Shown: in pieces, positions 4,782-60,781 of the stretch | How the letters are laid out: every line of letters starts with the position of its first letter | Numbering within the stretch: position 1 is the first letter of the stretch | DNA from: Candidatus Hodarchaeota archaeon | GTDB lineage: Archaea > Asgardarchaeota > Lokiarchaeia > Sigyniarchaeales > SOKP01 | DNA: 64,000 nucleotides | Assembly (NCBI GenBank): GCA_048887225.1 | Contig: JBHLJY010000002.1 | Coordinates: 288,001-352,000, forward strand | Direction: 5' to 3' | The notes under the pieces: model-generated | Told to the model about the DNA's origin: nothing | Seen by the model: only the letters and a program-made list of their open reading frames with translations | The model's database searches: none | Translations under genes and position numbers: made by a program

Positions 4782-6786
4782 GGAAATAACAATCTTCATA
4801 CTCAAACAATACATGTACATCATTCTCATATAAATTTGTAAAACGCATATCGCTAGTAAAATTGTATAATTCTGTTGAGCTCACTTTCTCTAGATCTAGT
4901 AAAACATATTCGATATTTTTATCTATTATATATTTTTTTATTTCTATTATATTATTCTTACCAGCTCTGAATTTCCAATCATAAAGTTTATAAGTACTTA
5001 ATAGGCTGTGGAGTGCATCACCATAATCATCATAAAAATGAACTAATATTTTCGAGTCTTCTGGAATGTTATCTTTAATATAGAAAATTGTTTCAAAATG
5101 TTCCTCTTCAAAATAAACGTGATAATAAACGTTGCGATGGACTATAAAGGTAGAAAAAACCGATATAAGAAGTAATGTAATCACAATATTTTCAATTTTA
5201 AAAAAATTCGAGCTCTTTAATAGATTTTTATAACGGGGATAGTTGTTTCTAAGGTATAGAGTAATAATCTTAGCTTTTTTGATAATTAATTCTATAATAA
5301 AACAACAAAAGATTATAATTGGTCCCGTAAAAGCCTCCAAAATTCTAGGTATAAACCAAATAAGACTTTGGGCAAATATCGTAGGGGATTCAGAGAATAA
5401 AAGATCTCCCACATAAAATCCAATTATAACAATGAGGGAAAATTTTCCAAAATTAATTAAATCTCGATTTTTTTTCCCAAAATACCTTTTTATTGGTAAG
5501 AATAATCCTATAATAGTAAAAATAATGAAAAAGGAGAACACACGTTTTTCTAAATCTCTAAATATAGAGATTACATCATTATTTGGGATTATATCTTTTA
5601 GAATATCAGAAAAATCAAAATTCAGTAAAATCGTATTTAAACTTAATAAATTAAGATTTTTCGATAAGTATATTGTTGGAATTCCAAAAATTATAGAAAA
5701 AGCGTTTAGCAATTCAATGAAAGTTATGTTAAGAACGATCATTGTATGGAAAACGAAAGTCAATAATAGTATTAAGATCAAAATTATTGGTTTAATTGTG
5801 TATTCCATTAAAGTAATTCTTAGGGGGTAATGTTTAGAAATTAATTTAAATAAGATTAATAATCCCCAAACAATAATATAGCCAAACGCATAAAGCGGGT
5901 TAAATAGAAACATTAATTGAACGAAAAAAGCCGTTAAATAAAAAGGGCATTTTGATCGGAGAATAATTAAAGTTACAAGTATCATTATTGTAGGGAAATT
6001 TGAAGAAGTGTTCAAACAAAACCGAGAGAATAATATATTTGACATTAAAGTTAAAACTAATCCTATTAAAACTAAATAATTTTTTTCAAAGATTCTCTTC
6101 AATAGTGTTGCCATAATAATAATGTAAAAAGACATAATAGGTATACCAGCGAATTTAAAATACAAATAAGCAAAACCAAAATTTGGATTTATTAATACTG
6201 GAGCAACAATAAAAATAACAAAACCTCTCGGATAATGAATTCCGTGACGAGCTCTCCAAATATGCCCTTTCTCAAGTAGATGCCACATATGCCCCATCCA
6301 CCCATATGTATCTAGTGATGGAAGTGCGTATTCTTGAGTTATAACCCTCCATTGAACCGCAACTTGAATAAATATGATAAAAATCACAATTATTATTAAA
6401 GAGATTAAATCCCGTGGGTTCTTCTTAAATCTCCTCTTGATTGAATTAATAAAATCATTAACCTTATCTCTTGTTAATTTTTTACGATATATTAAAAACA
6501 AAACAAATAAAATATCTATTATTATAAGTGAGAGGTAGGCTGAGTAAAAATTAAAAAAGTGGAAAATATCTAAAATGAAACTTAATGAAATATAAATTGA
6601 CAAACCAATTCCAAATGATATTAAAAAAATTTCTAAAAAATTAATGTCCCAATCCTTCTTATTGATTTTTTTCAAAAAATAAAAGAAAATATATCCAAAA
6701 ACCGATATTAAAAATACGAAAAGGAAAAACGTTAAAGCAACTAATACCATATTAAAAAAGAGCCACTCTGGAGCTGTATTCACCAT
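4774..6786 (-). CDS. Polytopic GT-C-fold membrane glycosyltransferase-like protein with STT3/AglB-like C-terminal domain
   Basis: Many TM helices; loop SLDTYGW...HYPRGF; C-terminal soluble domain YIKDNIPEDSKILVHFYDDYG...NIEYVLLD. Confidence 0.6.
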   Translation of the reverse strand: MVNTAPEWLFFNMVLVALTFFLFVFLISVFGYIFFYFLKKINKKDWDINFLEIFLISFGIGLSIYISLSFILDIFHFFNFYSAYLSLIIIDILFVLFLIYRKKLTRDKVNDFINSIKRRFKKNPRDLISLIIIVIFIIFIQVAVQWRVITQEYALPSLDTYGWMGHMWHLLEKGHIWRARHGIHYPRGFVIFIVAPVLINPNFGFAYLYFKFAGIPIMSFYIIIMATLLKRIFEKNYLVLIGLVLTLMSNILFSRFCLNTSSNFPTIMILVTLIILRSKCPFYLTAFFVQLMFLFNPLYAFGYIIVWGLLILFKLISKHYPLRITLMEYTIKPIILILILLLTFVFHTMIVLNITFIELLNAFSIIFGIPTIYLSKNLNLLSLNTILLNFDFSDILKDIIPNNDVISIFRDLEKRVFSFFIIFTIIGLFLPIKRYFGKKNRDLINFGKFSLIVIIGFYVGDLLFSESPTIFAQSLIWFIPRILEAFTGPIIIFCCFIIELIIKKAKIITLYLRNNYPRYKNLLKSSNFFKIENIVITLLLISVFSTFIVHRNVYYHVYFEEEHFETIFYIKDNIPEDSKILVHFYDDYGDALHSLLSTYKLYDWKFRAGKNNIIEIKKYIIDKNIEYVLLDLEKVSSTELYNFTSDMRFTNLYENDVHVLFEYEDCYFLT

Positions 6787-27848: not shown

Positions 27849-29558
27849 ATGGGTAAATTGAAGAAAATAATATACGAAAACTGGGAGCTTCTCGGAAGCT
27901 TAGCAATATTTTGGTCCACAATGATACTTATGCTGAGTTATTCTATCCTTTATTTAAATGAAGGGCATCTTGTTTATTCTTTAGATGATGCTTATATTCA
28001 TATGGCAATGGCAAAAAATTTCTCACAAAAAGGAGTTTGGGGTATAACTGATGCGGGATTTTCATCAACATCATCATCGATTTTATATACATTATTACTG
28101 ACATTAATCTTTTTATTTGGACCAAATGAGGTCGCACCTCTTATAATTAATCTTGCTTGTGCCTCACTACTCATTTGGTTTGTTTATTATGTCTTAAAAA
28201 CAAAATATAATTTTCCAGATTATGGTGTATTTGTTTGTTTATTATTGATTATTTTCTTTATACCCTTACCATTTTTAATATTTACAGGAATGGAACACAC
28301 AATACAGATCTTTATTGATATAATTTTTATTTATCTAGCAGTAAATATACTTTGCGACGAAAAAATTTTGGAAAAAAGAATATTTTCTTCAAATGAAGTA
28401 GAGAAATTATTCTCAATTCAAGATAAATTATTTTTGATTGCCACACCTCTAGTTACATTGGTAAGATTTGAAGGGATGTTTCTAATAGTGGTAATTTCTG
28501 CTTTATTTTTAATACGTAAGAAATATATTTATGCATTAATCATAACAGGACTTGGTTTTCTCCCAATAATTATTTTTGGTCTAATTTCTATGAATTTTGG
28601 ATGGTATTTCTTCCCAAATTCAGTGATTTTAAAAGGAGAATCCATTGATTTCTTTTCAATTAATGGAATTTCAGAAATTCTCTTAACATTCATAGATGAT
28701 ATCTCTGATAATTTGCATATTACTGTTCTGCTTATTAGTGCTGTAATTATATTCATTTTTTATTATTTTAAAGAAAAAAAAATATGGAAGGAATCTTCTG
28801 TTATAGCTGTCATTTTCATTTTTGTAACTCTTTTGCATTTAATTTTAATCGGTGCCACCATAGAAAACCAAAATCTTTCTAGGTATGATGGGTATTTAGT
28901 TGCTCTTGGAATTTTGGTTTTATTTTTATCAGTAAAAGATAAATTACCACAAAAATTAGCTCGAAGTCATTTAAATGTTTATTTCGCTAAGATTAAAGAA
29001 AATTATAGACGTAATCTTGTACCATTAGTGGGTGGTAGTTTGGTGCTTTTTTTTCTTTTCTTCTCTTTTGTTCCAAGAAGTTATACACTTATTAAAGATT
29101 CACCTCAAGCATCAAATAATATTTATGAACAGCCATACCATATAGGATTATTTCTTGATAAATATTATGACGGAGAATGTGTTGCCGCAAATGATATAGG
29201 GGCAATAAATTTCCATGCTGATATTGAATGTTTGGACTTAAGAGGATTGGGAACCCTAAGTGTTGCCAAAGCAAGATTAGATAATAAAATGGGAACTAGG
29301 TTTGTTTCTAAAGAAGTAGAAAAAAGGGATTGTAAGATTGCTGTAATTTTTGAAGATAAAGATTACGGGTATGGAATTCCAGATGAGTGGATTAAAGCGG
29401 GGGAATGGGAAGTTAAAAATGATGTAGTATTAGGCGATGATACTATATCTTTTTGGGCAGTTGATCCTAGTGAATATGACGATCTAATTGAAAATCTTAA
29501 AGATTTCGAGGATAAACTTCCCGATACTGTTATTCAATCAGGAAATTATACACTTTGA
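27849..29558 (+). CDS. AftB/GT89-like GT-C membrane glycosyltransferase
   Basis: LDDAYI..AKN, SSS, TGME, VRFEG, FPNSVILK, DIGAINF...LDLRGL in the order I recall for AftB-like proteins. Confidence 0.7.
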   Translation: MGKLKKIIYENWELLGSLAIFWSTMILMLSYSILYLNEGHLVYSLDDAYIHMAMAKNFSQKGVWGITDAGFSSTSSSILYTLLLTLIFLFGPNEVAPLIINLACASLLIWFVYYVLKTKYNFPDYGVFVCLLLIIFFIPLPFLIFTGMEHTIQIFIDIIFIYLAVNILCDEKILEKRIFSSNEVEKLFSIQDKLFLIATPLVTLVRFEGMFLIVVISALFLIRKKYIYALIITGLGFLPIIIFGLISMNFGWYFFPNSVILKGESIDFFSINGISEILLTFIDDISDNLHITVLLISAVIIFIFYYFKEKKIWKESSVIAVIFIFVTLLHLILIGATIENQNLSRYDGYLVALGILVLFLSVKDKLPQKLARSHLNVYFAKIKENYRRNLVPLVGGSLVLFFLFFSFVPRSYTLIKDSPQASNNIYEQPYHIGLFLDKYYDGECVAANDIGAINFHADIECLDLRGLGTLSVAKARLDNKMGTRFVSKEVEKRDCKIAVIFEDKDYGYGIPDEWIKAGEWEVKNDVVLGDDTISFWAVDPSEYDDLIENLKDFEDKLPDTVIQSGNYTL

Positions 29559-30487: not shown

Positions 30488-31804
30488 ATGAAGCTTTTCA
30501 AAAGAAAAGAAATCGATATTACTCTCTTGAGTAAAGGATTTTTAATAATATCTCTAATAATTCACCTTGTTTTTATTTTTTCTCTCGTTTTTGGGTTTTT
30601 GAATCCCCTATTCCATGATAGTACTTACCGTTTAGGTCAAGGTTCTGATTTTTATGCTATTTACCAAGCGGGATATAATGTATTATTTGGGTTAAATCCT
30701 TATAAGAAGGTTGATGGCTATAATGTCGTCCCATATTCATATAATTTCATCTACCACCCGTTTCTAGCTTTTACTTTTGGAGTTGCATTTAATATCTTTC
30801 CACCATTCGTTGCATACTGGGTTTGGGTTATAGTTTTGCTTAGTCTGGTATGGATATCATGTTATCTTACTCATAATATCTGTAGAGCTTTAGATAAACC
30901 TAAATGGGTTGAATTTGTTGCTATAGGGATGTGGTTATGTTTTTCACCGATTTATGTTGAATTATTTATGGGACAAATAACATTAATAGTAGCACTATTA
31001 GCTTTCTTTTCATTATACGCAGAAACACGCAAAAAAGAAGCTCAAGGGACTATTTTTTGGACCCTTTCATGTCTCATAAAACAGTTTCCTTTTATTCTTT
31101 TACCTTCAATTTTAAGTTCGGGAAGGACAAGAAAAGTAGTTATAAATATTATTGTCTTTACGATTGCGACAATAGTATTTGGGCTAGGATATTTTTTATT
31201 TTATTATTTAGAATATGCAGGAATAAGATCAAGTAAAGTGTATACCCATTATGGGAATTTTGATTTAAGAAGTGTTATTTATGAGTTTGGTACGCTTATT
31301 ACAACGAGCCCTTCTTGGCTTGAAAAAAATATTTTTTTGATTAATATTGTATTATTTAGTATATTTATTGGCTTATCCTTAATTGCGACGATTTATTCAA
31401 GAGATTACTTAGTTTCAATTAGCCTATTTGTTTGTTCTTACTTCATAATTTTTTCAGGTGTCTGGGAACACCATTTTACATTAATATTACCCTTTCTAAT
31501 CCTTCTATGGATTCGAGATGAATCAAGGAACAAATGGTTTTTTATTTTCCTTTTTTTAGCTATTCCTACTCCTTTTATAATTTTAGAATTAAGCAATTTA
31601 TGGTATTTTCCTTTTTCTCTTTTGTACAGATGTTTTAAGTTTGTTCCTATTTTGATAATGTTTATTTTATTGCTGAAACAGGCATATAAAACACCTCGAA
31701 CCACAAGTTTCGTTGAATCAATTAAAGAAGTAAAAAATAATATTATTATCGGCTTAAAAAATCCAAATATTGAAAATTATTCAAACATTTTCATGGAATT
31801 ATAA
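30488..31804 (+). CDS. GT87/DUF2029 membrane glycosyltransferase (PimE/AftC family)
   Basis: GSDFYAIY..NPY..FIYHPF, GQIT, IKQFP, VWEHH. Confidence 0.8.
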   Translation: MKLFKRKEIDITLLSKGFLIISLIIHLVFIFSLVFGFLNPLFHDSTYRLGQGSDFYAIYQAGYNVLFGLNPYKKVDGYNVVPYSYNFIYHPFLAFTFGVAFNIFPPFVAYWVWVIVLLSLVWISCYLTHNICRALDKPKWVEFVAIGMWLCFSPIYVELFMGQITLIVALLAFFSLYAETRKKEAQGTIFWTLSCLIKQFPFILLPSILSSGRTRKVVINIIVFTIATIVFGLGYFLFYYLEYAGIRSSKVYTHYGNFDLRSVIYEFGTLITTSPSWLEKNIFLINIVLFSIFIGLSLIATIYSRDYLVSISLFVCSYFIIFSGVWEHHFTLILPFLILLWIRDESRNKWFFIFLFLAIPTPFIILELSNLWYFPFSLLYRCFKFVPILIMFILLLKQAYKTPRTTSFVESIKEVKNNIIIGLKNPNIENYSNIFMEL

Positions 31805-31828: not shown

Positions 31829-33697
31829 TCAATACCTAGTTTTAAAGATTACCTCATCATCTATCGTTATTTTTCTGAAATAATCATTATTTTCAAGAAA
31901 TTCTGCTCTAAAATATATTTCAACTTCTAATCTTTCGGGGAAGTGTTCAAGCTGAGCGGCATCAAATAGGTATTCTGTTATATTTAGAGAGACTGGATCA
32001 ATATGAGGTTTAAGGTAAAAATAATGTATCATACCAAACTTACTACTCATCATTTTTTGATAAAACTCTTTTGAATCTTTGCAATCAGCAAGTTCTTGCA
32101 GAAAAACTATCCTCTCATTGTTTAACGCGCTAGGATGACTGAAATGAGGATTATATACAATAAAAAGATTGATCGGTAAAAATGCCGCAACTTCATAGTA
32201 ATGAAGTAAAAATACTTTATTTTCATAATCTAATTGTTCAATAATATTAACCCGTCTTGGAACATTCTCGTTAAGAGCATCCTGATAATAATCAGATTTG
32301 TACAAGCTAACTGTATTATCATAATTCTGAAAGAATATAATTAGTAGGAGTATAAAAATTTCTAAATTTTTAAGATTAACTTTACTTTTAAACTGCTTTA
32401 AAGCTTTATGCTTTTTTAGGATTCTGAAAAATTCAAAATAGAATAATGTGAAAGAAATTACGAGTACATAATAAGATACAATTAAAACTCTATAATGAAC
32501 CAATGGAAAGCCTGCTAATGCACCTATAAAACTTAACACATAGAGAATATAAACAGATATGACAATATTTCCTAAAAAGGTTAGCAAATTCGATCTAGAA
32601 TATCGTAATAAAACAAAAATAATTCCCAGAATCAAAATGAAACTAAATAGATTGAATTTGAGATATTCTTCAAATGGCATTTCTAGTGCGTAGTTTGGAA
32701 AGAATAAGTTTTGATGCCCTTCTGCTCCCAGTAAGAGAATATTGATAGTCAAGGGAAGCCAAAACCAAGAACTAAAAATAAAAATTAATATTGAAATAAA
32801 AAATATTCTTTTAATTTTATTTTTAAACTCTTTTATGTTATTTTGAATCTTACTTTGAATCAAAAGGATAAACACATAGATTGGAACGAGGATAAAATAC
32901 AGATAAAAGGTGCATACTAAAATCGAGCCAATTATTCCAGCAATTATATAATCTTTTCTTGAAAATTCTTTATTTGTATAATTTTCAAAATAATAGAGAA
33001 AAAACGGAATAAAGAACATATAACCAATTAAATGATCAATCCAAATAATCTCATTATAATTCGCTACAAATGTGAAAAACAGAGCTGTAATGTAGAAAGA
33101 TTTTTTTTTACTAAAAAGCTTTTTCCAAGCTTCGTTTAGGAGTATCGGTAAAATATAATATGAAAATAAAAATCCAAACTTTACCATCTTATGGGATTCA
33201 ATCTGAAATAATGCTGCAAATACTGCTAAAATATACCAATAAAGCGGTGCCATAAATGCTGAAAATCCTTTAAACGCAAAATCTTGAGGATATATTGAAT
33301 GAGCCATTTGAGCGATCATCGCAGATCTATACCAATTATCAGGACCTAATCCACTATAAGCAAAATCAGTTCTAGCAAAGAGAAATGATAAGATCGCAAA
33401 ACTAAACACAGTAAAAAGAATAATATTTCTTTTATAATCTACCATAAAAATCTTTTTTCTCGTATTTGGCTGATTGAATATAACAAAAATTATGAAGAAA
33501 CCAATCGTGATTAGCGCACAGATAATATTTCTATAAAACTCTTCCCAGAAAACTGGCGGCAATAGCAAAAAAAGTATAATAAAAGCTAGACATCCTATAC
33601 CTGCATACAAGAATTCTTGAAAAATATCTAATTTATATAGTTCAGAAGCTTTTTCTTTAATTACACTTGTTTTTGATTTTTCCTTATTACCAGACAT
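31829..33697 (-). CDS. AftA/GT85-like arabinofuranosyltransferase homolog (paralog A)
   Basis: GLGPDNWYRSAMIAQMAH..QDFAFKGFSAFMAPLYWY and C-terminal PHFSHPSALNNER parallel the AftA N- and C-terminal signatures as I recall them. Confidence 0.72.
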   Translation of the reverse strand: MSGNKEKSKTSVIKEKASELYKLDIFQEFLYAGIGCLAFIILFLLLPPVFWEEFYRNIICALITIGFFIIFVIFNQPNTRKKIFMVDYKRNIILFTVFSFAILSFLFARTDFAYSGLGPDNWYRSAMIAQMAHSIYPQDFAFKGFSAFMAPLYWYILAVFAALFQIESHKMVKFGFLFSYYILPILLNEAWKKLFSKKKSFYITALFFTFVANYNEIIWIDHLIGYMFFIPFFLYYFENYTNKEFSRKDYIIAGIIGSILVCTFYLYFILVPIYVFILLIQSKIQNNIKEFKNKIKRIFFISILIFIFSSWFWLPLTINILLLGAEGHQNLFFPNYALEMPFEEYLKFNLFSFILILGIIFVLLRYSRSNLLTFLGNIVISVYILYVLSFIGALAGFPLVHYRVLIVSYYVLVISFTLFYFEFFRILKKHKALKQFKSKVNLKNLEIFILLLIIFFQNYDNTVSLYKSDYYQDALNENVPRRVNIIEQLDYENKVFLLHYYEVAAFLPINLFIVYNPHFSHPSALNNERIVFLQELADCKDSKEFYQKMMSSKFGMIHYFYLKPHIDPVSLNITEYLFDAAQLEHFPERLEVEIYFRAEFLENNDYFRKITIDDEVIFKTRY

Positions 33698-33845
33698 TAT
33701 TAATAATTGAGAGGGTTTTCATATAGAATTAAACAAGATTTATTATTTTTAACAATATATAATAACCATTATTTATAACTAAGTTTAAGAGATTATCTAA
33801 AATACTTTAATTACAGTTTTTAAAAAAAGATTAGTAAATTTTCAA

Positions 33846-35063
33846 ATGAATATATTATATATCGTTCAAGGATTTCCCCCAAGTATTGGAGCGGGCGCAA
33901 TAAATGCATATAAAATTGCTAAATACCTTGCTGGTTTCAACCACAAGATTTTAGTCTTATCTCCAGGAGTATTTAGCAAACCCTCTAATGAAAGCAAGGC
34001 TTCAGTTATAGAAAGATTAAATGATACAGATATAGAAGTGAAATATTCAAGTAAACTTATGAGAATTCCATTAAATCTGACTCTCTCTCATTTTGAAAAT
34101 ATGATCCGTTTTTTTTTAAAGCTGAAATCAAGGTTTCGACCAGATGTCGTCTTATCCCAATATCAAGCTTTCCATTACGCAAGTGTAGTTGGAGGCTATC
34201 TATCAAAAATATTGAAGATACCTCATATTAGTCGCTCTCATGACATTTTCTTTCCAACAGATGCCTTTTCAATGCCATTACGACTTTTTTACTCTTCAAT
34301 TTATACCAGAATTTATCGCTCTATTTTAAATTGCGATATATTTTATGTTACCACTTCAGAAATGAAGAGACATTATTTGAAATTTAAAAAACTGAAGAGT
34401 GTTAATTTTAAACTGCATCATAACGGGATAGATACAGATCAATTCTACCCTTTTGATAATCAAGAAGAACTAAAAGAAAAGTTCAATGCTGATAATATAG
34501 TTTTATTTGTTGGACAAATTTCAAGAGATTATGATTTAGGATTTATACTCAAAATAATACCAGATATTCTAAAAACTCATAAAGATACCCATTTTTTAAT
34601 AATTGGAAGTGGTCCTCATGAGAAAAGTTTAGTGGAGTTCATCAAAGATAATAGTTTAACCAAACAAATTCATTTCTTAGGAATAAAGGCTCATGAAGAA
34701 ATTCCATATTATATAAATAATAGTGATATAGGTATTGGAAGGATAACGCGTGAAAAAATTTGGAGATATATGATACCGGTGAAATGTTTAGAGTATATGG
34801 CCTGCGCTAAACCTTTCGTAACTGCCCCTCTTTCGCAAGATTTAATTAGAAATAATGATGTTGGATTAGTGTTGAAAAGAAGTTTTACAGAAAAAGAACT
34901 GCTTGATAAATTAATTATGCTAATAGAAGACTCTAGCTTAAGAAAAAGATTAGGAGAAAATGGTATGAAAAAAATCCACCAGAAATTCAGATGGGAAGTA
35001 ATAATGGAAGAATTTAATAATGAATTAATTGATTTAAAAACTAATTATCTGAAACAAATATAA
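33846..35063 (+). CDS. Glycosyltransferase family 4 (paralog of 3600..4781)
   Basis: Shares FHYASVVGGYLSKILKIPHI, KTHKDTH, DIGIGRIT, IPVKCLEYMAC with the 3600 protein. Confidence 0.92.
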   Translation: MNILYIVQGFPPSIGAGAINAYKIAKYLAGFNHKILVLSPGVFSKPSNESKASVIERLNDTDIEVKYSSKLMRIPLNLTLSHFENMIRFFLKLKSRFRPDVVLSQYQAFHYASVVGGYLSKILKIPHISRSHDIFFPTDAFSMPLRLFYSSIYTRIYRSILNCDIFYVTTSEMKRHYLKFKKLKSVNFKLHHNGIDTDQFYPFDNQEELKEKFNADNIVLFVGQISRDYDLGFILKIIPDILKTHKDTHFLIIGSGPHEKSLVEFIKDNSLTKQIHFLGIKAHEEIPYYINNSDIGIGRITREKIWRYMIPVKCLEYMACAKPFVTAPLSQDLIRNNDVGLVLKRSFTEKELLDKLIMLIEDSSLRKRLGENGMKKIHQKFRWEVIMEEFNNELIDLKTNYLKQI

Positions 35064-35875
35064 ATTTTCTCTCTTTTATCTAATCCAAACAAATCTATAA
35101 ATTTTTTGTTTAAATCACCAACAAAATTATCAACCTGAACCTTAAACCCTGCTCTTTCTAATTTATCTTTATAATCAATACCATAAATTCTAAAGTGATT
35201 CTGCTCCCCAAATAATTTACGCCGTTCATTAGCAGCCATCTCTTTTGTACCCTCGACAGTTTTCTTAAGAGAGTAATCAATTGGAGATTGAATTATTGCC
35301 CATCCATTAGGTTTTAAAACTCTAAATATTTCTCTCATAGCTAGAGTATCATTAATTACATGTTCTAGCACGTGGGAGCACAATATAACATCAAAACTTT
35401 TATCTTCAAATATCAAATCTGTAATATCGGTCTTAATCATTGCTAATGGAGAACTTAAATCAGCAGTAATACATTCAATATTTGAGAGATTTTTAAAAAT
35501 TGATAACAAAATTTTGTTAGGCGCAAAATATAATACTTTTAACTTGCTTTTAAAGAAATCTGTTTTAGTTTTAAGGTACAAAAGCATCAACCGGTGCCGT
35601 TCTAAAGAACTACATCCAGGACACTGCGCGGATAACCTAAATTGTGTTCCAACTGGAATGAACTTCTTGAAATTCCCTCCACAACAAGGACAGATTTTAT
35701 TCTTTCCTTTAAATAAAATCCTTCTCATTGTTTTAAAAAATAAAATAAACTTAGGTAAGTAATTCTCAAAAACTCGAAAAAGGAAAGTTTGTTCATGGCC
35801 TAATAAATTGGCTAAATAAAAAGGATTTTTTAATAAATGATATATCTGTTTTTTCCACGAAAATTCTTTTTTCAT
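35045..35875 (-). CDS. Class I SAM methyltransferase with N-terminal Zn ribbon
   Basis: CPCC..CPGCSSLERHR, VLYFAP, FDVILCSHVLEHV, RVLKPNG. Confidence 0.88.
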   Translation of the reverse strand: MKKEFSWKKQIYHLLKNPFYLANLLGHEQTFLFRVFENYLPKFILFFKTMRRILFKGKNKICPCCGGNFKKFIPVGTQFRLSAQCPGCSSLERHRLMLLYLKTKTDFFKSKLKVLYFAPNKILLSIFKNLSNIECITADLSSPLAMIKTDITDLIFEDKSFDVILCSHVLEHVINDTLAMREIFRVLKPNGWAIIQSPIDYSLKKTVEGTKEMAANERRKLFGEQNHFRIYGIDYKDKLERAGFKVQVDNFVGDLNKKFIDLFGLDKREKIYICFR

Positions 35876-35900
35876 AATAAAAATATAAAAATATATAGCT

Positions 35901-36740
35901 TTATTTTAGCTCACTAAAGATTAATTTTTTCTTCTTAAAAGAAATTTCATCTTTTTTAAAAATTTTTAACTTAATTTTTAATAAAAGATATCTGAAAAAG
36001 CAGGCCAAAATATTAATTGCTAATTTATTTAATTTTATTCTTGATTTACCATGCGCTCTATCCATTAATTTGATTGGACATTCCTTTATTCTAAAACCAT
36101 ATAAAGCGGCTCTAATAATTAACTCTGTTGTAAATGCAAAATTGTAATATTGAATATTCTCGAAAATACTGATTATTTTTCTATCAAAAGCTCGGAAACC
36201 ACCTTGATTATTTACGACTTTTTGACCAAATATTATCAGCAGTAATTTCTCAACAAAAATTTCTCCAATTCTCGTAGTAATCGGGAGTTCGTAATTATAG
36301 CTCCCTAAATATCTTGATCCAATAGTATATTCTGCCTCATTATTAAGAATTGGTTTAATTAATGAATAAATATCATCTCCCGAATGCTGGCCATCAGCAT
36401 CCATAGTAATAATAATTTTTCCATTTGATTTTTTTATTCCAGTTAATATTGCTTTTCCATATCCCCGATTTCTTTTATGTTTATATAGTTTTATATCCCA
36501 ACTTGCTTGAGCTCTCTTAATCTCCTCAACACTTTTATCTTTTGAACAGTCATCGATAACAATGACTTCTATTTTATTATTATTTGGTAGGGAAGTTAAT
36601 ATTGAATATATTGTTGTTTCTTCATTATAAACAGGTATCACTATTGAAATCAAATACTTTTTATTACTTTTGATTCTTTCTATATGCTGATACATTTCAT
36701 TATAAGTATTAGAAAGACTACTCACCAAAAGCCTTACCAT
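35901..36740 (-). CDS. GT2 glycosyltransferase (DPM-synthase-like)
   Basis: IPVYNEE, IDDCSKD, NRGYG, MDADGQH, IGSRY, GFRAF. Confidence 0.9.
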   Translation of the reverse strand: MVRLLVSSLSNTYNEMYQHIERIKSNKKYLISIVIPVYNEETTIYSILTSLPNNNKIEVIVIDDCSKDKSVEEIKRAQASWDIKLYKHKRNRGYGKAILTGIKKSNGKIIITMDADGQHSGDDIYSLIKPILNNEAEYTIGSRYLGSYNYELPITTRIGEIFVEKLLLIIFGQKVVNNQGGFRAFDRKIISIFENIQYYNFAFTTELIIRAALYGFRIKECPIKLMDRAHGKSRIKLNKLAINILACFFRYLLLKIKLKIFKKDEISFKKKKLIFSELK

Positions 36741-36914
36741 AAAATGAATTTTAAGATTATTATTTAAACTAGTTTTTATTTAAATAAGTTGTTATTTAAT
36801 ATGATAATATTATTAATAAAAATATTTAATTCTTTTATTAAGAGTAATTTTCGGGAAAGACCCAAAATCGGTTTTTTTTAAAAAAAATGAGAATAAAATC
36901 TCTTACATTTAATC

Positions 36915-39461
36915 TTAATCAAAAAAAGGGGCATAATATAACGTTAAATCTCCGATTTCTTTTTTAGTTTCGTTATAAAGTCTCGGAATGAGATAATTTT
37001 TTACAAAAACGGTCCTATTATTTTGGTCTTCAAAATAATCTTCAGAAATTAAAAAATATTTAATTTTATCATCTTTTAGGTCGCTTATCTCTTCATTTCG
37101 TTCAGTTGGATTTGCTCTTGATTCAAAAACATCATTTAGGATTATATAATATGAACTTGCTAATAAAAGGGTTCCAATCTTTAAAACAAAATCATTTTCC
37201 ATCAATATCTTCGAATCCTCAGGGATATTATCCGACATCCAACTAAACATTTCAATTTCATCTTCTGAAATTTTATTTTCAATATCACTTGCTCTCATAC
37301 TGAAGATAAAAAAGTTTGATAAAAATAGGAAAATAAATAAAGAGAAAGAGAGGTATTTTGTAAAAATCCTCCTGTTTTTCCCTAAAAATAATTTTTTAAA
37401 TCTATCCTTATTTTTAATGATTTTAATAAATTTAGAAATTCCTAAGGTAAAAAGAATACTAAAGGGAATTACAGAAAATACCCATATCCTATTGAACCAA
37501 AAGTACATCATCCTAAAATTTTCTGAATCAATAGTATTTGTCTTAATCGCAAGAGTTTGGTACCAATTGAGATAAATAAGGAGAGAACCAAAGATAATTA
37601 CAAAGAACGTCCATGTAAACATCAATCTAAACAAGGATTTATTCATTTTAAAACAAAAAAAAGATAAATATACTGCTACTATTCCAACATAACCTATATT
37701 AATGAAAATTTCATGTAAATAATTAAAAAACATATATTTTTCATACAATTTATTATTGGAAAAAATCTCCCCTAATAAAATAGATATTACCTCAATAATA
37801 AGAAATATTGAGAAAATCAAAAGACAAATCTTAAAGGTTTTAATAACATCAAAATTAAATTTAAAGAATTTCTTTTCTCCATTTATGAATTTTTTTTTAT
37901 ATATATACCAATTCAAAATTGAAGCGAAAAAAATGATGATAAATAATGTATATACAATAATGTTAGGTGGAATTATTAATATAAGATACGCAAATACTTG
38001 AGACTGGAAGATCCATTGAATCATATTAAAAATGGATAAAGATAAATATGTGCTCATAACAAGATCAAAGACTATGAGAGTTATAGTCGTTAATAAAATG
38101 AAAAATGAGAGAATTTGAAAGTTAATTATTTTTTTTTCTGTAACCATACAATAAAGAATTATCATTAAAAATCCCATAAGGAATGGAATCATATATGATA
38201 GAAAGCTAAGGCTTAATAAAAAAGCCGAAAGATAAATTATTTTTGACTCTTGGAGATTAAGAATAAAATTAAATTTTCTTTTTTCTTCATTCATATTGCG
38301 AGTTTTTGAAATTAAAATAAATATTGCCAAGCTTAATATGAATAAAATGATAGAATAGCTTTTATATATGATATAAATCAAACAAACAAAACTTAATGAT
38401 GAGATCGTTGAAAACGATATAATATAAAATAATCCCGAAAATGTTATCATTACAATAGTTGAAGAAACTGCAAGTTTTTCTTTAAAATTGATTAAAATGG
38501 ATTTCATTAGTATAAAAACGGATGTTACAAATAAATAAGTAAACGGAAAGAATAATACATTCATATTTACGAAGGGGATACCTCCTAGTATACTAAATCC
38601 AAAGATTACATAACACCAAAATATAGGATAAAATAGAAAATCTTCGCCTCTAGCTATTGGACTTGTATTATCACTTCCTATAAATTTTGAAGGAGATACC
38701 CCTGCCCAACTATCGCTTAAGGTAAGATATGGATTTGCTAACAATACAGCAAGAGAAATAAAGATAAATCCTATTGCCATCAATAATATAATAAATAAAT
38801 TGTTGGAAACTTCGATTTTATTAATTTTTTGAAAAAAAACCTCATTTCGAGTTTTTTGAATAATCAAATCAATAGATAATAGATTATAAATAATAATTAT
38901 TAAAGCTAATAGGAAGTGATCTTTATGCAAATTTATTTGGTCGAGGATTAAAGTTGATATTCCAATGAACGCAAATGAAAGTATTGGATATAATGTTAAT
39001 TTTATTATGGAACTATTTAGATTTAAACGCTTATCTAAATTGGTGTTACTAAAAAATATATTATATATACTTGCACCAGGAATAAAAGAGGCTCCTAAAA
39101 GGACTATAATTGCTCTAATTAAATTTGAAAACCCGATTCTTTTCCATAAAATTATAGTTGATCTGTAAGTAATTGGTGGGATTAATAAAGAAACAAGCAT
39201 CAAACCTGCTAGTATGATCTTTACAAAATTTTCTGGTATAAATTTGAAAGAAAATAAAATAATTTTATCATTCTCATGATCAAAATTAATAAAAGTAAAG
39301 ATCCCAGTGATAATTAAAACGAAACCTATGAATATTATTATCGAAATAATTAAACTATCTCCCGGGGGATAAAAGAAAATGAGAAAAATGAAATAGGCGA
39401 AAATAAAACCGATAATGAATACAATTGACGATAAATTTTTTCTTAGGTTAAAAACCACCAA
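36915..39461 (-). CDS. Large polytopic GT-C-like membrane protein
   Basis: 848 aa, very many TMs; loop LSDSW...FYPIFW; C-terminal WMSDNIPEDSKIL...IKYFLIS. Confidence 0.55.
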   Translation of the reverse strand: MVVFNLRKNLSSIVFIIGFIFAYFIFLIFFYPPGDSLIISIIIFIGFVLIITGIFTFINFDHENDKIILFSFKFIPENFVKIILAGLMLVSLLIPPITYRSTIILWKRIGFSNLIRAIIVLLGASFIPGASIYNIFFSNTNLDKRLNLNSSIIKLTLYPILSFAFIGISTLILDQINLHKDHFLLALIIIIYNLLSIDLIIQKTRNEVFFQKINKIEVSNNLFIILLMAIGFIFISLAVLLANPYLTLSDSWAGVSPSKFIGSDNTSPIARGEDFLFYPIFWCYVIFGFSILGGIPFVNMNVLFFPFTYLFVTSVFILMKSILINFKEKLAVSSTIVMITFSGLFYIISFSTISSLSFVCLIYIIYKSYSIILFILSLAIFILISKTRNMNEEKRKFNFILNLQESKIIYLSAFLLSLSFLSYMIPFLMGFLMIILYCMVTEKKIINFQILSFFILLTTITLIVFDLVMSTYLSLSIFNMIQWIFQSQVFAYLILIIPPNIIVYTLFIIIFFASILNWYIYKKKFINGEKKFFKFNFDVIKTFKICLLIFSIFLIIEVISILLGEIFSNNKLYEKYMFFNYLHEIFINIGYVGIVAVYLSFFCFKMNKSLFRLMFTWTFFVIIFGSLLIYLNWYQTLAIKTNTIDSENFRMMYFWFNRIWVFSVIPFSILFTLGISKFIKIIKNKDRFKKLFLGKNRRIFTKYLSFSLFIFLFLSNFFIFSMRASDIENKISEDEIEMFSWMSDNIPEDSKILMENDFVLKIGTLLLASSYYIILNDVFESRANPTERNEEISDLKDDKIKYFLISEDYFEDQNNRTVFVKNYLIPRLYNETKKEIGDLTLYYAPFFD

Positions 39462-39849
39462 AATGATCTTTTTAATTTATGAATTTTTTAGTGTTTCAAA
39501 TTATTATTTTCAATTAAATTTTTCTCTCAGTTTTATTTGATATTATATTTCATTTAAGAAATTGAATATTGCTCAATTTTAAGTTTTAGGGTTTTTTATC
39601 CAAGGAAATATAATATTTCTTGCTAAATACTATTAAGATTATTCAATCACATTTATTAGCTTCTTTTCAAAAAGAATTTTAAATCAAATAACTCAAATAA
39701 CATCAATATGTTTTTAATTATGTAAAAATAATGGAATCCATTGGTAGATTTAGTAAATTTATATAAATATAAAAGAAACTGAAAATTTTAATAAATACTT
39801 TAGAGCCTTATAGAGAATTTTAAAATTTATATAAACTGATTAAATAAAT

Positions 39850-41661
39850 ATGAATCTTGATAAAATAAAGAAATATTTAATTTCACTTTTTAAAAAAGAT
39901 ATAACTCAAGAACTATTTTTTTCTGGTTTAGGCTGTTTAATTTTTTATGTTTTTTTCAGATTTTTTCCAGATAAAGCCTGGCATAAAGAATTTCGAACTA
40001 CGATTATTTTAATTATAGCTTTATCATTTTTTCTTGTCTTTCTAATTTTGAATCAGCCAAATCCAAGAACTAAACTTTTTAAAGTTAATTATAAAAGAAA
40101 TATTATTTTATTTTCAATTTTTAACTTTACAATCTGGTGTTTTATTTTTTATAAGACTTCGTTTGGATTTTTTGGAATCGCTGCTGATAATTATTATCGT
40201 TCAGCATACATTACTCAAATGGCCCATTCAGGATATCCTCAAGATTTTGCGTACAAGGGACTTTCTGCATTCTATTCACCCTTCTATTATTACTGTCTAG
40301 CACTTATAGCTATAATTTTTCACATTCCTCCTTATAAAATGGTAAAAATAGGCTTTTTATTGACTTATTATATCATTCCAATCATTTTATTTGAGTTTTG
40401 GAAGAAAATTTATAGTAAAAAGGTAGCTTTTTTCATAACTGTTATTTCCTTTCTTATAATTGGCGATATATATTCACAGGATCATATGATTGGGTACATG
40501 TTATTTATACCATATTTTATGTATTATTTTGAGAATTATCCGAAAAAAGATTTCAAGCTTAAAAATTATGTAATTGGAGGATTAATTGGTTCAATTATTT
40601 TTACAACTTTCTTTTTATATTTTGCTATTATTCCAATGTATTATATAATAATTCTTGTTCAAAACAAGAAAAAATTAAAAGAAGATTTAAAACATATTTC
40701 TTATCTATCAATATTTTTATTGATATTTAGTAGTTGGTTTTGGGGCCCTATATTAAGAGATATATTATTTTTAGGTTTTGAAAGTCATCAAAATCGATAT
40801 TTTCATCCAAGTATTTTAACATTTCCATTATTATGGTATTTTGAAACTACTTATTTTGGAGTTATCTATGTAATTGGAGCAATATTTATTATGAAAAAAT
40901 ATTCTAATTTATATGATATAAAAATTCTAGGAAATCTTCTAATTTCTATCAGTTTTTTGTTTTTATTAGGATTGATTGGGATATTAATCGGTTTTCCAAT
41001 AATGCATATTCGCTTTCTTTATGTTTCTTTTTACATATTAATCATTTCAGCTACAATTTTTTATGTAAAATTCTTTCATTTTATTGCTAAAAATGATAAA
41101 ATAAGAATACAGAACTTTCAACTTAATTTAAAGCAAGTTGAAATATCTTTAATTATTAGCTTTTTTTTCTTTCAGTATACAAATTATGCTATAGTGATAA
41201 CCGAGACCCCTTACTATGATTACACTATAGATGAAGATTATCCTGCAGATCTTATAGACATTTTTGAAGAATTAGATTATGAAGATAAGGTTTTCCTTAC
41301 AACTAAATATCGAGTTGCAGCATTTATCCCTATATATTGTTTCTTATTACCTATTCCTTATTATTCTCATCCCTCTTCTTTATATAATGAACGTGTAAAG
41401 TTTCTTGTTGAATTATCAGAATGTGATAATTCAAAATCATTTCACAAAAAAGCAACTGAAAATGAATTTGAACCAATAGATTATTTCTTTTTAGATTTTG
41501 AGAACAATGATACAGTTTTAGTTTTTGAAGTTACGGTTGAAAAGTTCATAGAAGGCAGAGAATATTATGAAATAAAATTTGATAGAGCGTTATTTCTAGA
41601 TCCTGACTTATTTGAAGAGATTATTATTGATAACAAAATAATATATGAAACAAAATATTAA
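39850..41661 (+). CDS. AftA/GT85-like arabinofuranosyltransferase homolog (paralog B)
   Basis: FGIAADNYYRSAYITQMAH..QDFAYKGLSAFYSPFYYY..IPPYKMVK; C-terminal KVFLTT..YYSHPSSLYNER; clear paralog of 31829..33697. Confidence 0.75.
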   Translation: MNLDKIKKYLISLFKKDITQELFFSGLGCLIFYVFFRFFPDKAWHKEFRTTIILIIALSFFLVFLILNQPNPRTKLFKVNYKRNIILFSIFNFTIWCFIFYKTSFGFFGIAADNYYRSAYITQMAHSGYPQDFAYKGLSAFYSPFYYYCLALIAIIFHIPPYKMVKIGFLLTYYIIPIILFEFWKKIYSKKVAFFITVISFLIIGDIYSQDHMIGYMLFIPYFMYYFENYPKKDFKLKNYVIGGLIGSIIFTTFFLYFAIIPMYYIIILVQNKKKLKEDLKHISYLSIFLLIFSSWFWGPILRDILFLGFESHQNRYFHPSILTFPLLWYFETTYFGVIYVIGAIFIMKKYSNLYDIKILGNLLISISFLFLLGLIGILIGFPIMHIRFLYVSFYILIISATIFYVKFFHFIAKNDKIRIQNFQLNLKQVEISLIISFFFFQYTNYAIVITETPYYDYTIDEDYPADLIDIFEELDYEDKVFLTTKYRVAAFIPIYCFLLPIPYYSHPSSLYNERVKFLVELSECDNSKSFHKKATENEFEPIDYFFLDFENNDTVLVFEVTVEKFIEGREYYEIKFDRALFLDPDLFEEIIIDNKIIYETKY

Positions 41662-41728
41662 CCAAAACTTTTCAATCTGATTGAATTTTTTTATTATAAA
41701 GAGTTTGAAAATATATAATATAACGCTA

Positions 41729-43177
41729 ATGACCTTAAAAAAAGAATCAGAAAAATTAAAAATTTTGCTCTTAAGTGTCAGTTCAGAGTCATTTTTCTAT
41801 GATCAACTCGTAATACCTTTTGGTTTAATTAGTTTAGCATCTTATATTGAGGATCAACAATTTGAGATTAAAGGAATTGAAATGAACAATCCTCCCGAAA
41901 AGATAAACCAGCGATATTTACAAGTTGATAAGGAGTTTCTGAAAGAAATTGAAGAATTTTCCCCCGATATCATCGCAATGAGTTCATACGCTTCAAATAT
42001 ATATAATATTATATTTTGGGCCAATTTACTAAAAAAAAAATTGCCAAACTGTGTGATTATGGTTGGTGGGAATCATGCATCATATATAGATAAAGAAATT
42101 TTGGAGAAATGTCCTGGAATTGATATCGTGGTTAGATTCGAAGGAGAAATTCCTTTTAAAATGATAAGTGAGAAGCTATTAAATAATAATGATAATTTTT
42201 CAGATGTTCCTAGTATTACATATAGATCAAATGGAGAGATTAAAAAAAATCCACAAGCAGAATTAATTAAAGACCTAAGTTCCCTTCCAATGCTTAACCG
42301 AGATTATTTTAAATTTGAAACAAAATCTAAAGATGAGGTATATCATGCCGATTTAATTTCTGCGAGAGGCTGTCCTTTTAACTGTACTTTTTGTAATTGT
42401 AATCATTATTGGAGTAAACGATATAGAGTACGACATATTGATTCTATTATAAAAGAATTAAAGAGTTTAAAAGAGGAATATCCAAATCTTAAGTCTATTA
42501 GAATTCGTGATGAATCAGTTACAATCAACAAAGTCAGATGTAAAAAGTTATGTGATGCTATTAAAGAAAATGGATTAGTTCTTGAATTCCAAGCACATTC
42601 GCGACTCGACGGATTAGATGAAGAAGTGATACAAAATTTATCGGAAGCGGGTTTTAAATTAGTCTTTATAGGTATGGAGTCTGGTAGTCAACGGATATTG
42701 AATATATTAAATAAAGGGATAGATATTTCTAGAGCTGGAGATGTTGTTTCTCAGTTAAGAGATTATGGTATTAAATTCAGAATTTCATTTATGAGTGAAA
42801 CACCAGATGAGAAGTTAAAAGATGTAAAAAAAACTATAAAGCTTATAAAAAAATTAAGATTAAATGTTAAAACTAACGAGTATTATATTGGAACGGGAGT
42901 AGCAATTTATCCTGGTACTACTGACTGTCAAAAATTTCTACGTCTAAATCCTGATTATGAGTGGATTACAAAAGATTATAGATTTAAAGGTAAATATTAT
43001 CCAACTAGAGATTCATCAGGAAATATAATCCAACCTAATTATTTAGAACATAGCAGGTTTAAAAGAGCATTCATTAGAATTTATATTGAAATAAGTTTGA
43101 ATCCTATTGGTCTTATTAGTTATGTAAAAAACTCTCTTAAATTTATTATTCAGAATATAAAATTAAAATTTAAATAA
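41729..43177 (+). CDS. Cobalamin-binding radical SAM enzyme (class B-like); alternative TTG start at 41681
   Basis: PFGLISLAS, VGGNHAS, FEGE (B12-binding domain); ARGCPFNCTFC (CX3CX2C); GMESGS. Confidence 0.9.
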   Translation: MTLKKESEKLKILLLSVSSESFFYDQLVIPFGLISLASYIEDQQFEIKGIEMNNPPEKINQRYLQVDKEFLKEIEEFSPDIIAMSSYASNIYNIIFWANLLKKKLPNCVIMVGGNHASYIDKEILEKCPGIDIVVRFEGEIPFKMISEKLLNNNDNFSDVPSITYRSNGEIKKNPQAELIKDLSSLPMLNRDYFKFETKSKDEVYHADLISARGCPFNCTFCNCNHYWSKRYRVRHIDSIIKELKSLKEEYPNLKSIRIRDESVTINKVRCKKLCDAIKENGLVLEFQAHSRLDGLDEEVIQNLSEAGFKLVFIGMESGSQRILNILNKGIDISRAGDVVSQLRDYGIKFRISFMSETPDEKLKDVKKTIKLIKKLRLNVKTNEYYIGTGVAIYPGTTDCQKFLRLNPDYEWITKDYRFKGKYYPTRDSSGNIIQPNYLEHSRFKRAFIRIYIEISLNPIGLISYVKNSLKFIIQNIKLKFK

Positions 43178-59734: not shown

Positions 59735-60781
59735 ATGAAAAAGAGAATCATTACCATTGATATATTAAGAGCATTTTCTATATTTTGTATGATTCAAGTT
59801 CATATATTCTATTATTGGACAAATATGAATTATGATAATGCAAATTTGGTTATATTATATTTTGGACAATTAGCGGCTCCCATTTTCCTTATCGTTTCAG
59901 GATGTAGTTTTTATTTGTATATATCTAAAAAAGTGAATGAAAATATTGCCAGATTAGAGATTTTTAAAGAAATATCTAAAAGAGCTGTTTTTATTTTTAG
60001 CATATCCCTCGTATTTCAAATTCTCTTTGGTTTTATAATGGAATTGAAGATATCTTTTATTATTTATTGGAGTATATTTCAAGTAATTGCCTTTTCAATG
60101 ATTATCTATTTTTTTATCCCATTTTTAAAAAGAGAACTCAGAATCTTTACTTTGTTTTTAATCTTCTTTTTACTTTATCTAATATATTTTTTAATTCAAT
60201 TTTATAATATTGAGTATCTTGCTATTTTAGTTAGTGGAGGGGATTATACGTTTCTTCCTTGGGCAAGTCTTTTTATATTTGGTATTTTAATAGGTGATTT
60301 GATAATAAACATGCCAACCTATTACTTTAAAATATGCTTTATAATTTTTTTTCCGATTGGGATAATAATTCTTATTATATGGTGGCTTTGGTTTAAGGAT
60401 TTACGAATTGATTGGTGGATAGTAAGTTTTATATCTGCATTTTCGACATTTTTTATAGTTTTTCCTTTATTGTATTATTTTGCTGATATTAAAGAATATC
60501 AATCAAAACTTCTTACTAGGGGCACTCAGTGGGGTAGGTTTTCATTTTCTATTTATTATCTTCACTTTGGGGTTATAGCTATTGGTATTCTTATCTTCCC
60601 TTTTATTATACCTGATCTTTTTTCAAGGGGTTTTCTTTTATATCAATTTATCATCATCGTAATTATGTTTTACATAGGGATTGAATTATTTCTTAGAGTT
60701 TGGAAAAAATTGAATTATATCTTTGGTATAGAGTGGTTTTTGAACTTCATTAGTAAAAAGGAATTGTTTTCAAATGATTAA
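59735..60781 (+). CDS. HGSNAT/DUF1624-like transmembrane acyltransferase (paralog 1)
   Basis: IDILRAFSIFCMIQVH, AAPIFLIVSG, KRA, WSIFQVIA, LPW, GRFSFSIYYLH. Confidence 0.78.
   Translation: MKKRIITIDILRAFSIFCMIQVHIFYYWTNMNYDNANLVILYFGQLAAPIFLIVSGCSFYLYISKKVNENIARLEIFKEISKRAVFIFSISLVFQILFGFIMELKISFIIYWSIFQVIAFSMIIYFFIPFLKRELRIFTLFLIFFLLYLIYFLIQFYNIEYLAILVSGGDYTFLPWASLFIFGILIGDLIINMPTYYFKICFIIFFPIGIIILIIWWLWFKDLRIDWWIVSFISAFSTFFIVFPLLYYFADIKEYQSKLLTRGTQWGRFSFSIYYLHFGVIAIGILIFPFIIPDLFSRGFLLYQFIIIVIMFYIGIELFLRVWKKLNYIFGIEWFLNFISKKELFSND

Follow-up and report, generated by a model that had tools for sequence, protein, structure and literature searches.

We analysed a stretch of 64,000 nucleotides from the genome of a Candidatus Hodarchaeota archaeon (assembly GCA_048887225.1, contig JBHLJY010000002.1, positions 288,001 to 352,000 of the forward strand), which is referred to here as the window. 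The window is very AT-rich (26.5% guanine plus cytosine, G+C) and consists nearly from end to end of glycan-biosynthesis genes, forming an island of roughly 60 kb. It contains two genes, called type A and type B here, whose products resemble AftA, the enzyme that starts the arabinan of the mycobacterial cell wall and is known as essential and as a drug target. An initial annotation, made from the DNA letters without database searches, had described the pair as two AftA-like proteins with an intact catalytic-loop signature, and both open reading frames (ORFs) lie exactly where it had placed them:

31829..33697, minus strand: type A gene (protein P0001), AftA-family GT-C glycosyltransferase of 622 amino acids (aa), with D120/R124, R403 in transmembrane helix 12 (TM12) and the C-terminal R529
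39850..41661, plus strand: type B gene (protein P0002), AftA-family GT-C glycosyltransferase of 603 aa, with D113/R117, R388 and R515

The two proteins are 44% identical across their full length (E 8e-170). Their homologues measure 598-625 aa and can be aligned from residue 1, indicating that both gene models are sound. The whole-gene G+C of the pair is 0.278 and 0.242, compared with a mean of 0.272 (standard deviation 0.023) for the ORFs of the window, so the two genes do share the local AT-rich composition, as had been claimed.

Both proteins belong to the AftA family (CAZy GT85, Pfam AftA_N/AftA_C). The AftA_N profile (PF12250) of Pfam matches P0001 with 39.6 bits and P0002 with 43.3 bits, above its gathering score of 26.7 in either case, and the matches cover positions 39-409 and 62-392 of the 429 in the profile. 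These are exactly the only two AftA_N matches in the whole genome (3.27 Mb, 49 contigs, 98% complete), of which the window occupies part of contig 2. For both proteins, the sole solved structure matched by sequence is PDB entry 8IF8, the AftA of Mycobacterium tuberculosis (Rv3792, a galactan 5-O-arabinofuranosyltransferase of the same Pfam family; PMC10265970), with a phmmer E-value of 1.6e-11 for P0002 (query residues 85-587, chain residues 100-624) and 2e-9 for P0001. We use these single-sequence values because the E-value of 8.5e-93 obtained for 8IF8 with our family profile (A1) is not independent, as that profile includes P0062, a true AftA. The initial annotation had listed motifs of AftA and reported collinear counterparts in the archaeal proteins. 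The listed motifs proved accurate, and the phmmer alignment of P0002 with 8IF8 bears out the counterparts column by column: GIAADNYYR stands opposite GISVDQQFR, PQDFAYKGLSAFYSPFYYY opposite LRDMTYIGLPPFYPPGWFW, PPYKMVK opposite PAWEMFK, and PYYSHPSSLYNER opposite PHYANPLAQFDKR. A C-terminal H-x-x-x-P...R motif is likewise common to AftA and the window proteins. The loop signature lies in the two genes as follows:

40165..40344, plus strand: residues 106-165 of type B, which form its first large external loop, with the family signature G-x-x-x-D-x-x-Y-R ... D-F-x-Y-K-G-L-x-x-F-Y-x-P-x-Y-Y-Y, placed by the 8IF8 alignment
33179..33358, minus strand: matching external-loop signature of type A, residues 114-173

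The fold leads to the same family. An AlphaFold2 model of P0002 (predicted local distance difference test, pLDDT, 92; predicted TM-score, pTM, 0.90) was compared with known structures by Foldseek, which ranks 8IF8 first (E 1.8e-21, TM-score 0.76-0.79) and places STT3 and PglB next, at a TM-score of 0.41-0.46 and E of about 1e-6. VIA-align superposes the model (residues 12-603) on 8if8_B (residues 26-639) with a Z-score of 31.2 and a root-mean-square deviation of 3.3 Å over 576 of the 603 residues, while the runner-up, STT3, reaches a Z-score of 17.5. The superposition takes in the extra TM1-2 that are specific to AftA, so that the model has the 13-TM GT-C architecture of AftA, with these added helices and an alpha/beta C-terminal domain. 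This likeness goes far beyond the generic GT-C fold and, together with the AftA_N matches, it supports the AftA-like interpretation of the initial annotation, which thereby passes its own refutation test.

In M. tuberculosis AftA, D128 (the catalytic base), R132 (its partner) and R415 (beside the donor phosphate) are each essential (PMC10265970). These and two further residues of the mycobacterial enzyme have the following counterparts, with their conservation in an alignment of 33 sequences, one of which is the true AftA P0062, or in the wider family:

D128: D113 in P0002, D120 in P0001; invariant in the 33 sequences
R132: R117 in P0002, R124 in P0001; invariant in the 33 sequences
R415 (TM12): R388 in P0002, R403 in P0001; invariant in the 33 sequences
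E134: A119 in P0002, A126 in P0001; Ala in 29 of the 33 sequences
R551: R515 in P0002, R529 in P0001; invariant family-wide

The candidate catalytic Asp and Arg that had been noticed in both copies are therefore present, as D113/R117 in P0002 (codons 40186-40188 and 40198-40200, plus strand) and as D120/R124 in P0001 (codons 33338-33340 and 33326-33328, minus strand), and the TM12 Arg is common to both proteins and AftA as well. D113, D132 and R515 do not vary in the wider family either, where position 388 is Arg or Lys. Both genes encode intact, active-looking GT-C glycosyltransferases. According to the model, the chain would start inside the cell, cross the membrane in 13 TM helices and end in the alpha/beta C-terminal domain outside, with short loops rich in Lys and Arg on the predicted inner side (P0002 sequence read with the model helices). 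The Asp loop and the C-terminal domain would face the cell exterior, as they do in AftA.

GT85 has been treated as an actinobacterial family, and the initial annotation likewise regarded AftA as usually actinobacterial. This holds for the characterised members only, since hundreds of clusters with the Pfam domain lie outside the Actinobacteria. An exhaustive HMMER search of 1.84 billion representatives returned 380 clusters (50% identity) at E <= 1e-3 and 233 at E <= 1e-10, and AftA proper is thus one long branch of a much larger, uncharacterised family. A profile search of a 5.8-billion-protein set (alignment A2) returned the Asgard set only. The close homologues all come from Asgard metagenome-assembled genomes (MAGs) labelled Promethearchaeota, Lokiarchaeota, Hodarchaeota or Hermodarchaeota. 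Outside Asgard, members were found in the Firmicute Calderihabitans maritimus (WP_088555030.1), in Haloarcula sp. CBA1127 (WP_079990798.1), in a MAG named 'bacterium' and in clusters from Patescibacteria and Actinomycetota. The proteins of C. maritimus, Haloarcula and the Patescibacteria are the nearest non-Asgard relatives; these uncharacterised proteins are 25-39% identical over their full length, share the same motifs, and have been named 'arabinofuranosyltransferase' automatically. The equivalent of R117 is often lost in the wider family, whereas it is kept in the Asgard and actinobacterial clades.

In maximum-likelihood trees, the Asgard sequences group together at the end of a long stem, in a single clade with a support of 100 in the Shimodaira-Hasegawa-like approximate likelihood ratio test (SH-aLRT). 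Within it, the proteins of type A (about 621 aa) form the sister clade of those of type B (about 603 aa), which indicates that the duplication occurred inside the Asgard archaea and that the two genes are old paralogues that arose there. The base of the Asgard clade is made up of beta-helix fusion proteins, namely UYP48012.1 of Candidatus Lokiarchaeum ossiferum (P0212, 938 aa), P0069 (966 aa) and P0068 (888 aa). These Promethearchaeota relatives, at about 35% identity, keep the catalytic Asp and Arg, have the TM12 Arg shifted by one position and carry an extra C-terminal right-handed beta-helix of about 330 aa; their annotations read hypothetical or beta-helix protein and make no mention of AftA. 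The trees neither single out a sister group of the Asgard clade nor fix its branching order with respect to the non-Asgard relatives. Across the tree from the Asgard clade, within a clade of high G+C, the true AftA P0062 (944 bits to 8IF8) forms a long branch; it is 19% identical to the window proteins, whose identity to M. tuberculosis AftA is 14-19%. The phylogeny, which had been proposed as a check, thus does not group the pair with true AftA. On these sequence grounds P0001 and P0002 are not AftA orthologues, and with such low identity and a separate, deep clade the transfer of arabinose cannot be inferred from the name.

Within the phylum, one part carries the AftA-like gene, as an accessory trait. 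With a sensitive profile, members were found in 7 of 400 Asgard genomes: five of the ten in the genus of the window, one of 55 in a sister genus, and one single-contig 6-Mb genome of the same order, which has a fused form that matches the cluster of UYP48012.1. Genomes with the family carry one to four matches each. Such a patchy distribution, and the presence of bacteria among the nearest outgroups, might be explained by bacterial contamination of the genome bin or by a very recent transfer. Contamination is unlikely, because the G+C of the genes matches that of the host, because the genes lie mid-window on a contig that is at least 360 kb long, surrounded by genes that have Asgard orthologues, and because synteny is kept in five other Asgard MAGs. 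The fused relative in a single-contig genome also speaks against contamination, and an Asgard clade that is monophyletic, has a long stem and contains an internal duplication fits neither explanation; we find both hardly credible.

Each gene sits in its own conserved module of the surface-glycan island, as seen in a comparison with eight loci from five other Asgard genomes. The type B module comprises an 848-aa polytopic protein, an HGSNAT-like acyltransferase, the family 2 glycosyltransferase (GT2) of 35901-36740, another GT2 and a 534-aa polytopic protein, and the type A module comprises a family 4 glycosyltransferase (GT4), a 670-aa polytopic protein, a GT87 enzyme and a 569-aa polytopic protein. 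The relevant features of the window are:

4774..6786, minus strand: 670-aa polytopic membrane protein with 14 hydrophobic peaks
27849..29558, plus strand: 569-aa polytopic membrane protein with nine hydrophobic peaks and no Pfam match; orthologues near type A in loci L023 and L025
29595..30314, minus strand: second Dpm1/AglJ-like GT2, 239 aa, identified by Pfam and NCBIfam matches
30488..31804, plus strand: GT87-family (PimE-like) GT-C glycosyltransferase beside type A (Pfam GT87, 63.2 bits); in L025, an orthologue (72%) is close to type A
33846..35063, plus strand: cytoplasmic glycosyltransferase of family GT4, conserved as a neighbour of type A
35901..36740, minus strand: GT2 of 279 aa resembling polyprenyl-phosphate-sugar synthases (Pfam Glycos_transf_2; Dpm1/AglJ/PpgS-like), candidate maker of the lipid-linked donor
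36915..39461, minus strand: 848-aa ORF, probable orphan GT-C-fold membrane protein and constant neighbour of type B (synteny in L020-L022)
59735..60781, plus strand: HGSNAT-like transmembrane acyltransferase (Pfam HGSNAT_cat); elsewhere a copy separates the 848-aa gene from type B (L020-L022)

The GT2 of 35901-36740 has AglJ, PpgS and dolichyl-phosphate hexose transferase as its best NCBIfam matches, and its orthologue adjoins AftA-like genes in L020, L021 and L025. Orthologues of at least 63% identity occur only in genomes that bear AftA-like genes, within a few kb of one of them, while paralogues of lower identity are widespread. On the type A side, orthologues of the GT4 adjoin type A in L025 (71%) and L027 (53-57%) and lie about 6 kb away from it in L023 (62%). 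The gene for the 670-aa protein is found 12-16 bp downstream of type A in L023 (11840-13843) and L025 (4486-6531) and 25 kb away from it in the window, indicating that the island has been rearranged. The 848-aa gene is divergently adjacent to type B here and in L021, with the acyltransferase gene in between in L020 and L022. Its product has no Pfam match. In a Foldseek search with its AlphaFold2 model (pLDDT 74, pTM 0.80), the top matches are all GT-C enzymes but weak ones (E about 0.01, TM-score 0.3-0.38), and an hhalign comparison with the AftA family is weak and unconvincing (probability 36% in local and 88% in forced global mode). Judged mainly by its model, the protein is probably another, orphan GT-C. 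The hhalign comparison detected no relation of the AftA family to the 670-, 569-, 534- and 458-aa polytopic proteins of the island or to the GT87 enzyme.

The remainder of the window holds many further GT4 and GT2 glycosyltransferases, methyltransferases, one sulfotransferase, AsnB-like amidotransferases, two Wzx-like flippases and four CotH kinases with a VTC/DUF4956 pair. No small flippase of the GtrA or SMR type was found in the 64-kb window; a candidate flippase for a lipid-phosphate sugar is an ORF of the GtrA family (PF04138) at G000:C2:360465-360815, 8.5 kb past the window end.

The constant presence of several GT-C-like or polytopic neighbours is compatible with a complex, and oligosaccharyltransferases are the next structural neighbours after AftA. 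It might therefore be argued that P0001 and P0002 do not transfer single sugars but polymerise or ligate glycans, glycosylate proteins, or serve as catalytically silent scaffolds in a multi-GT-C complex. This appears quite improbable to us, as the structural likeness to STT3/AglB stays at the generic GT-C level (TM-score 0.41-0.46, Z-score about 17 or less), and the invariance of all three residues that are essential in AftA speaks against a silent scaffold.

Building on the homology, the fold, the conserved essential residues, the synteny and the phyletic pattern, from which we infer topology, activity, donor and acceptor, the explanation that we favour and hold to be reasonably probable is that the AftA-family GT-C pair uses a dolichyl-phosphate sugar to glycosylate a surface glycan on the outer side of the membrane. 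If the analogy with AftA holds, a monosaccharide linked to a lipid phosphate, which in an archaeon would be dolichyl phosphate, would enter from the membrane, and the TM12 arginine (R388/R403) would hold its phosphate. D113/D120, positioned by R117/R124, would then activate a hydroxyl of the acceptor, presumably a cell-surface glycan, and a single sugar would be passed on, with inversion, at the membrane's outer face. As donor, a dolichyl-phosphate hexose or N-acetylhexosamine is most likely, produced by the GT2 encoded nearby, rather than decaprenyl-phospho-arabinose (DPA), because the genome gave no match to the domain carried by DprE1, the arabinose-forming oxidase, because the candidate phosphoribosyltransferase (PRTase) does not co-vary with the AftA-like genes, and because the GT2 neighbour is conserved.

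Four observations weigh against this explanation. First, the AftA_C profile (PF12249), which was to be searched alongside AftA_N, gives P0002 18.3 bits (E 0.002), under the cut-off of 25, and finds no match in P0001. The family assignment of the C-terminal domain is nevertheless supported by the alignment of P0002 with 8IF8, which extends over this domain both in sequence (query to 587, chain to 624) and in structure, and by the precomputed PF12249 match that many orthologues carry. Second, the Ca2+ site of AftA, built from Glu134 and the Tyr523 backbone, is altered, as Glu134 is replaced by Ala in both copies and Tyr523 is kept (Y487). Since an E134A mutant of AftA, in which this Ca2+ ligand is removed, stays active (PMC10265970), the site is not defining for catalysis. 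Third, the neighbouring GT2 could serve the other GT-C enzymes of the island, the GT87 enzyme or the 848-aa protein, instead. Fourth, the genome has a UbiA-family ORF (G000 contig 4, 2774-3709) for which decaprenyl-phosphate phosphoribosyltransferase is the top NCBIfam match (E 4e-49; 167 bits, below the cut-off of 234) and behind which lies a PHP phosphoesterase gene, and a pentofuranose donor is therefore possible.

The fourth point leads to a different proposal, in which the two proteins are true pentofuranosyl transferases, of arabinofuranose or ribofuranose, using a dolichyl-phosphate pentofuranose supplied by this Rv3806c-like PRTase and the adjacent PHP phosphoesterase, in a pathway of mycobacterial style. 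Indeed, the sole characterised family member transfers arabinofuranose from a polyprenyl phosphate donor (PMC10265970), and pentofuranose three-component systems are widespread in bacteria (PMC11127046). The UbiA-family ORF also belongs to a conserved arrangement (locus L006, contig 4, 2774-5625), in the order PRTase-like gene, PHP phosphoesterase and DUF362, with a GT4-family (MraY/WecA-like) phosphotransferase upstream. However, 120 of the 135 genomes in the archaeal family, including all 36 high-quality ones, have the PRTase-like gene, whereas AftA-like genes occur in so few Asgard genomes; being near-universal, the former does not track them, and it lies on a different contig from the pair. 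Together with its PHP neighbour it looks like a core pair of polyprenyl-phosphate ribose-5-phosphate synthase and phosphatase. The conserved neighbour of the AftA-like genes is a Dpm1-like GT2 and not a PRTase, and the distance of the window proteins from true AftA argues in the same direction. Furthermore, the genome, which is 98% complete, has no match to the ALO domain (PF04030) of the epimerase subunit DprE1 (a search that did not extend to DprE2) and none to the UDP-galactopyranose mutase GLF (PF03275), the Corynebacterium control being positive for both. With no match to either, the mycobacterial donor, DPA, and the mycobacterial acceptor, galactofuran, are not expected here. We consider a pentofuranosyl transferase activity unlikely, if worth keeping in view. 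A metagenome scan (A5) yielded six short bacterial contigs in which relatives lie among housekeeping genes (arginine biosynthesis, uvrB) and have no Dpm1-like or PRTase-like neighbour; these contigs are uninformative on the donor. About a dozen of the PRTase-like matches in relatives contain a single in-frame TAA or TGA, which could reflect assembly errors, pseudogenes or recoding.

The Asgard proteins already bear the NCBI name 'arabinofuranosyltransferase', and the family label for such genes is therefore in the public databases. As applied to the archaeal genes, this name is not supported by the sugar pathways of the genome. In contrast to M. tuberculosis, the Asgard host has no match to the DprE1 domain or to UDP-galactopyranose mutase and, as an archaeon, would use dolichol-type carriers. 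Its AftA-family genes are duplicated and lie inside a large glycan island, unlike mycobacterial AftA, and Ala takes the place of the Ca2+ ligand. A search of the literature on AftA, GT85, arabinofuranosyltransferase or PF12250 in Asgard or other archaea found no paper.

Glycosylation of a surface glycan from a dolichyl-phosphate sugar, as we propose, would have parallels in bacterial three-component systems (GtrA/GtrB/Gtr*, and the GT136 pentofuranose system of Citrobacter youngae), in which a GT2 or a PRTase charges polyprenyl phosphate with one sugar, a flippase exports the product and a GT-C attaches the sugar to an already completed glycan on the outside (PMC11127046). The Asgard island shares this logic in that a conserved Dpm1-like GT2 neighbour is co-localised with a GT-C. 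It differs in its GT-C, which is GT85-like and not Gtr* or GT136, and in having no adjacent flippase, the candidates being the GtrA-family ORF beyond the window and the two Wzx-like flippases inside it. Moreover, several GT-Cs share the island, so that synthases and transferases cannot be assigned to each other one to one.

Asgard archaea are presumed to form their partnerships with other microbes through the cell surface, the chemistry of which is, to our knowledge, little described. A duplicated, monophyletic Asgard branch of the AftA family is now placed in conserved surface-glycan modules, and the pair provides concrete enzyme candidates for this chemistry. The cultured Candidatus Lokiarchaeum ossiferum, with its fused relative, offers an experimental handle. 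It may even be that a subset of Lokiarchaeia-type Asgard archaea builds, on the outer side of the membrane, a branched polysaccharide or lipoglycan for its surface in the style of mycobacteria, using duplicated GT85/AftA-family enzymes, GT87, orphan GT-Cs and dedicated dolichyl-phosphate-sugar synthases, and that this polymer might include pentofuranose from the conserved Rv3806c-like PRTase and PHP pair. We regard this as speculative and rather unlikely; if true, it would represent an envelope chemistry so far undescribed in archaea.

Some further features concern the surroundings of type B. A B12-binding radical SAM gene starts 19 bp downstream of it:

41681..43177, plus strand: B12-binding radical SAM gene

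This gene was considered as a part of the type B module and rejected, as it has no counterpart beside the AftA-like genes of the five other genomes, which makes the adjacency peculiar to this genome. The 848-aa ORF begins at TTG and the stored gene call is 761 aa long, so its true start is probably 87 codons downstream; an invariant D-S-W is found in the first external loop region of the protein. In L021 (MAG LW40_45, JAHPZA010000010.1, 10001-14854), a tandem pair of type B genes flanks an oppositely oriented gene for an HGSNAT-like acyltransferase, and a type A copy lies about 19 kb from this pair on the same 700-kb contig.

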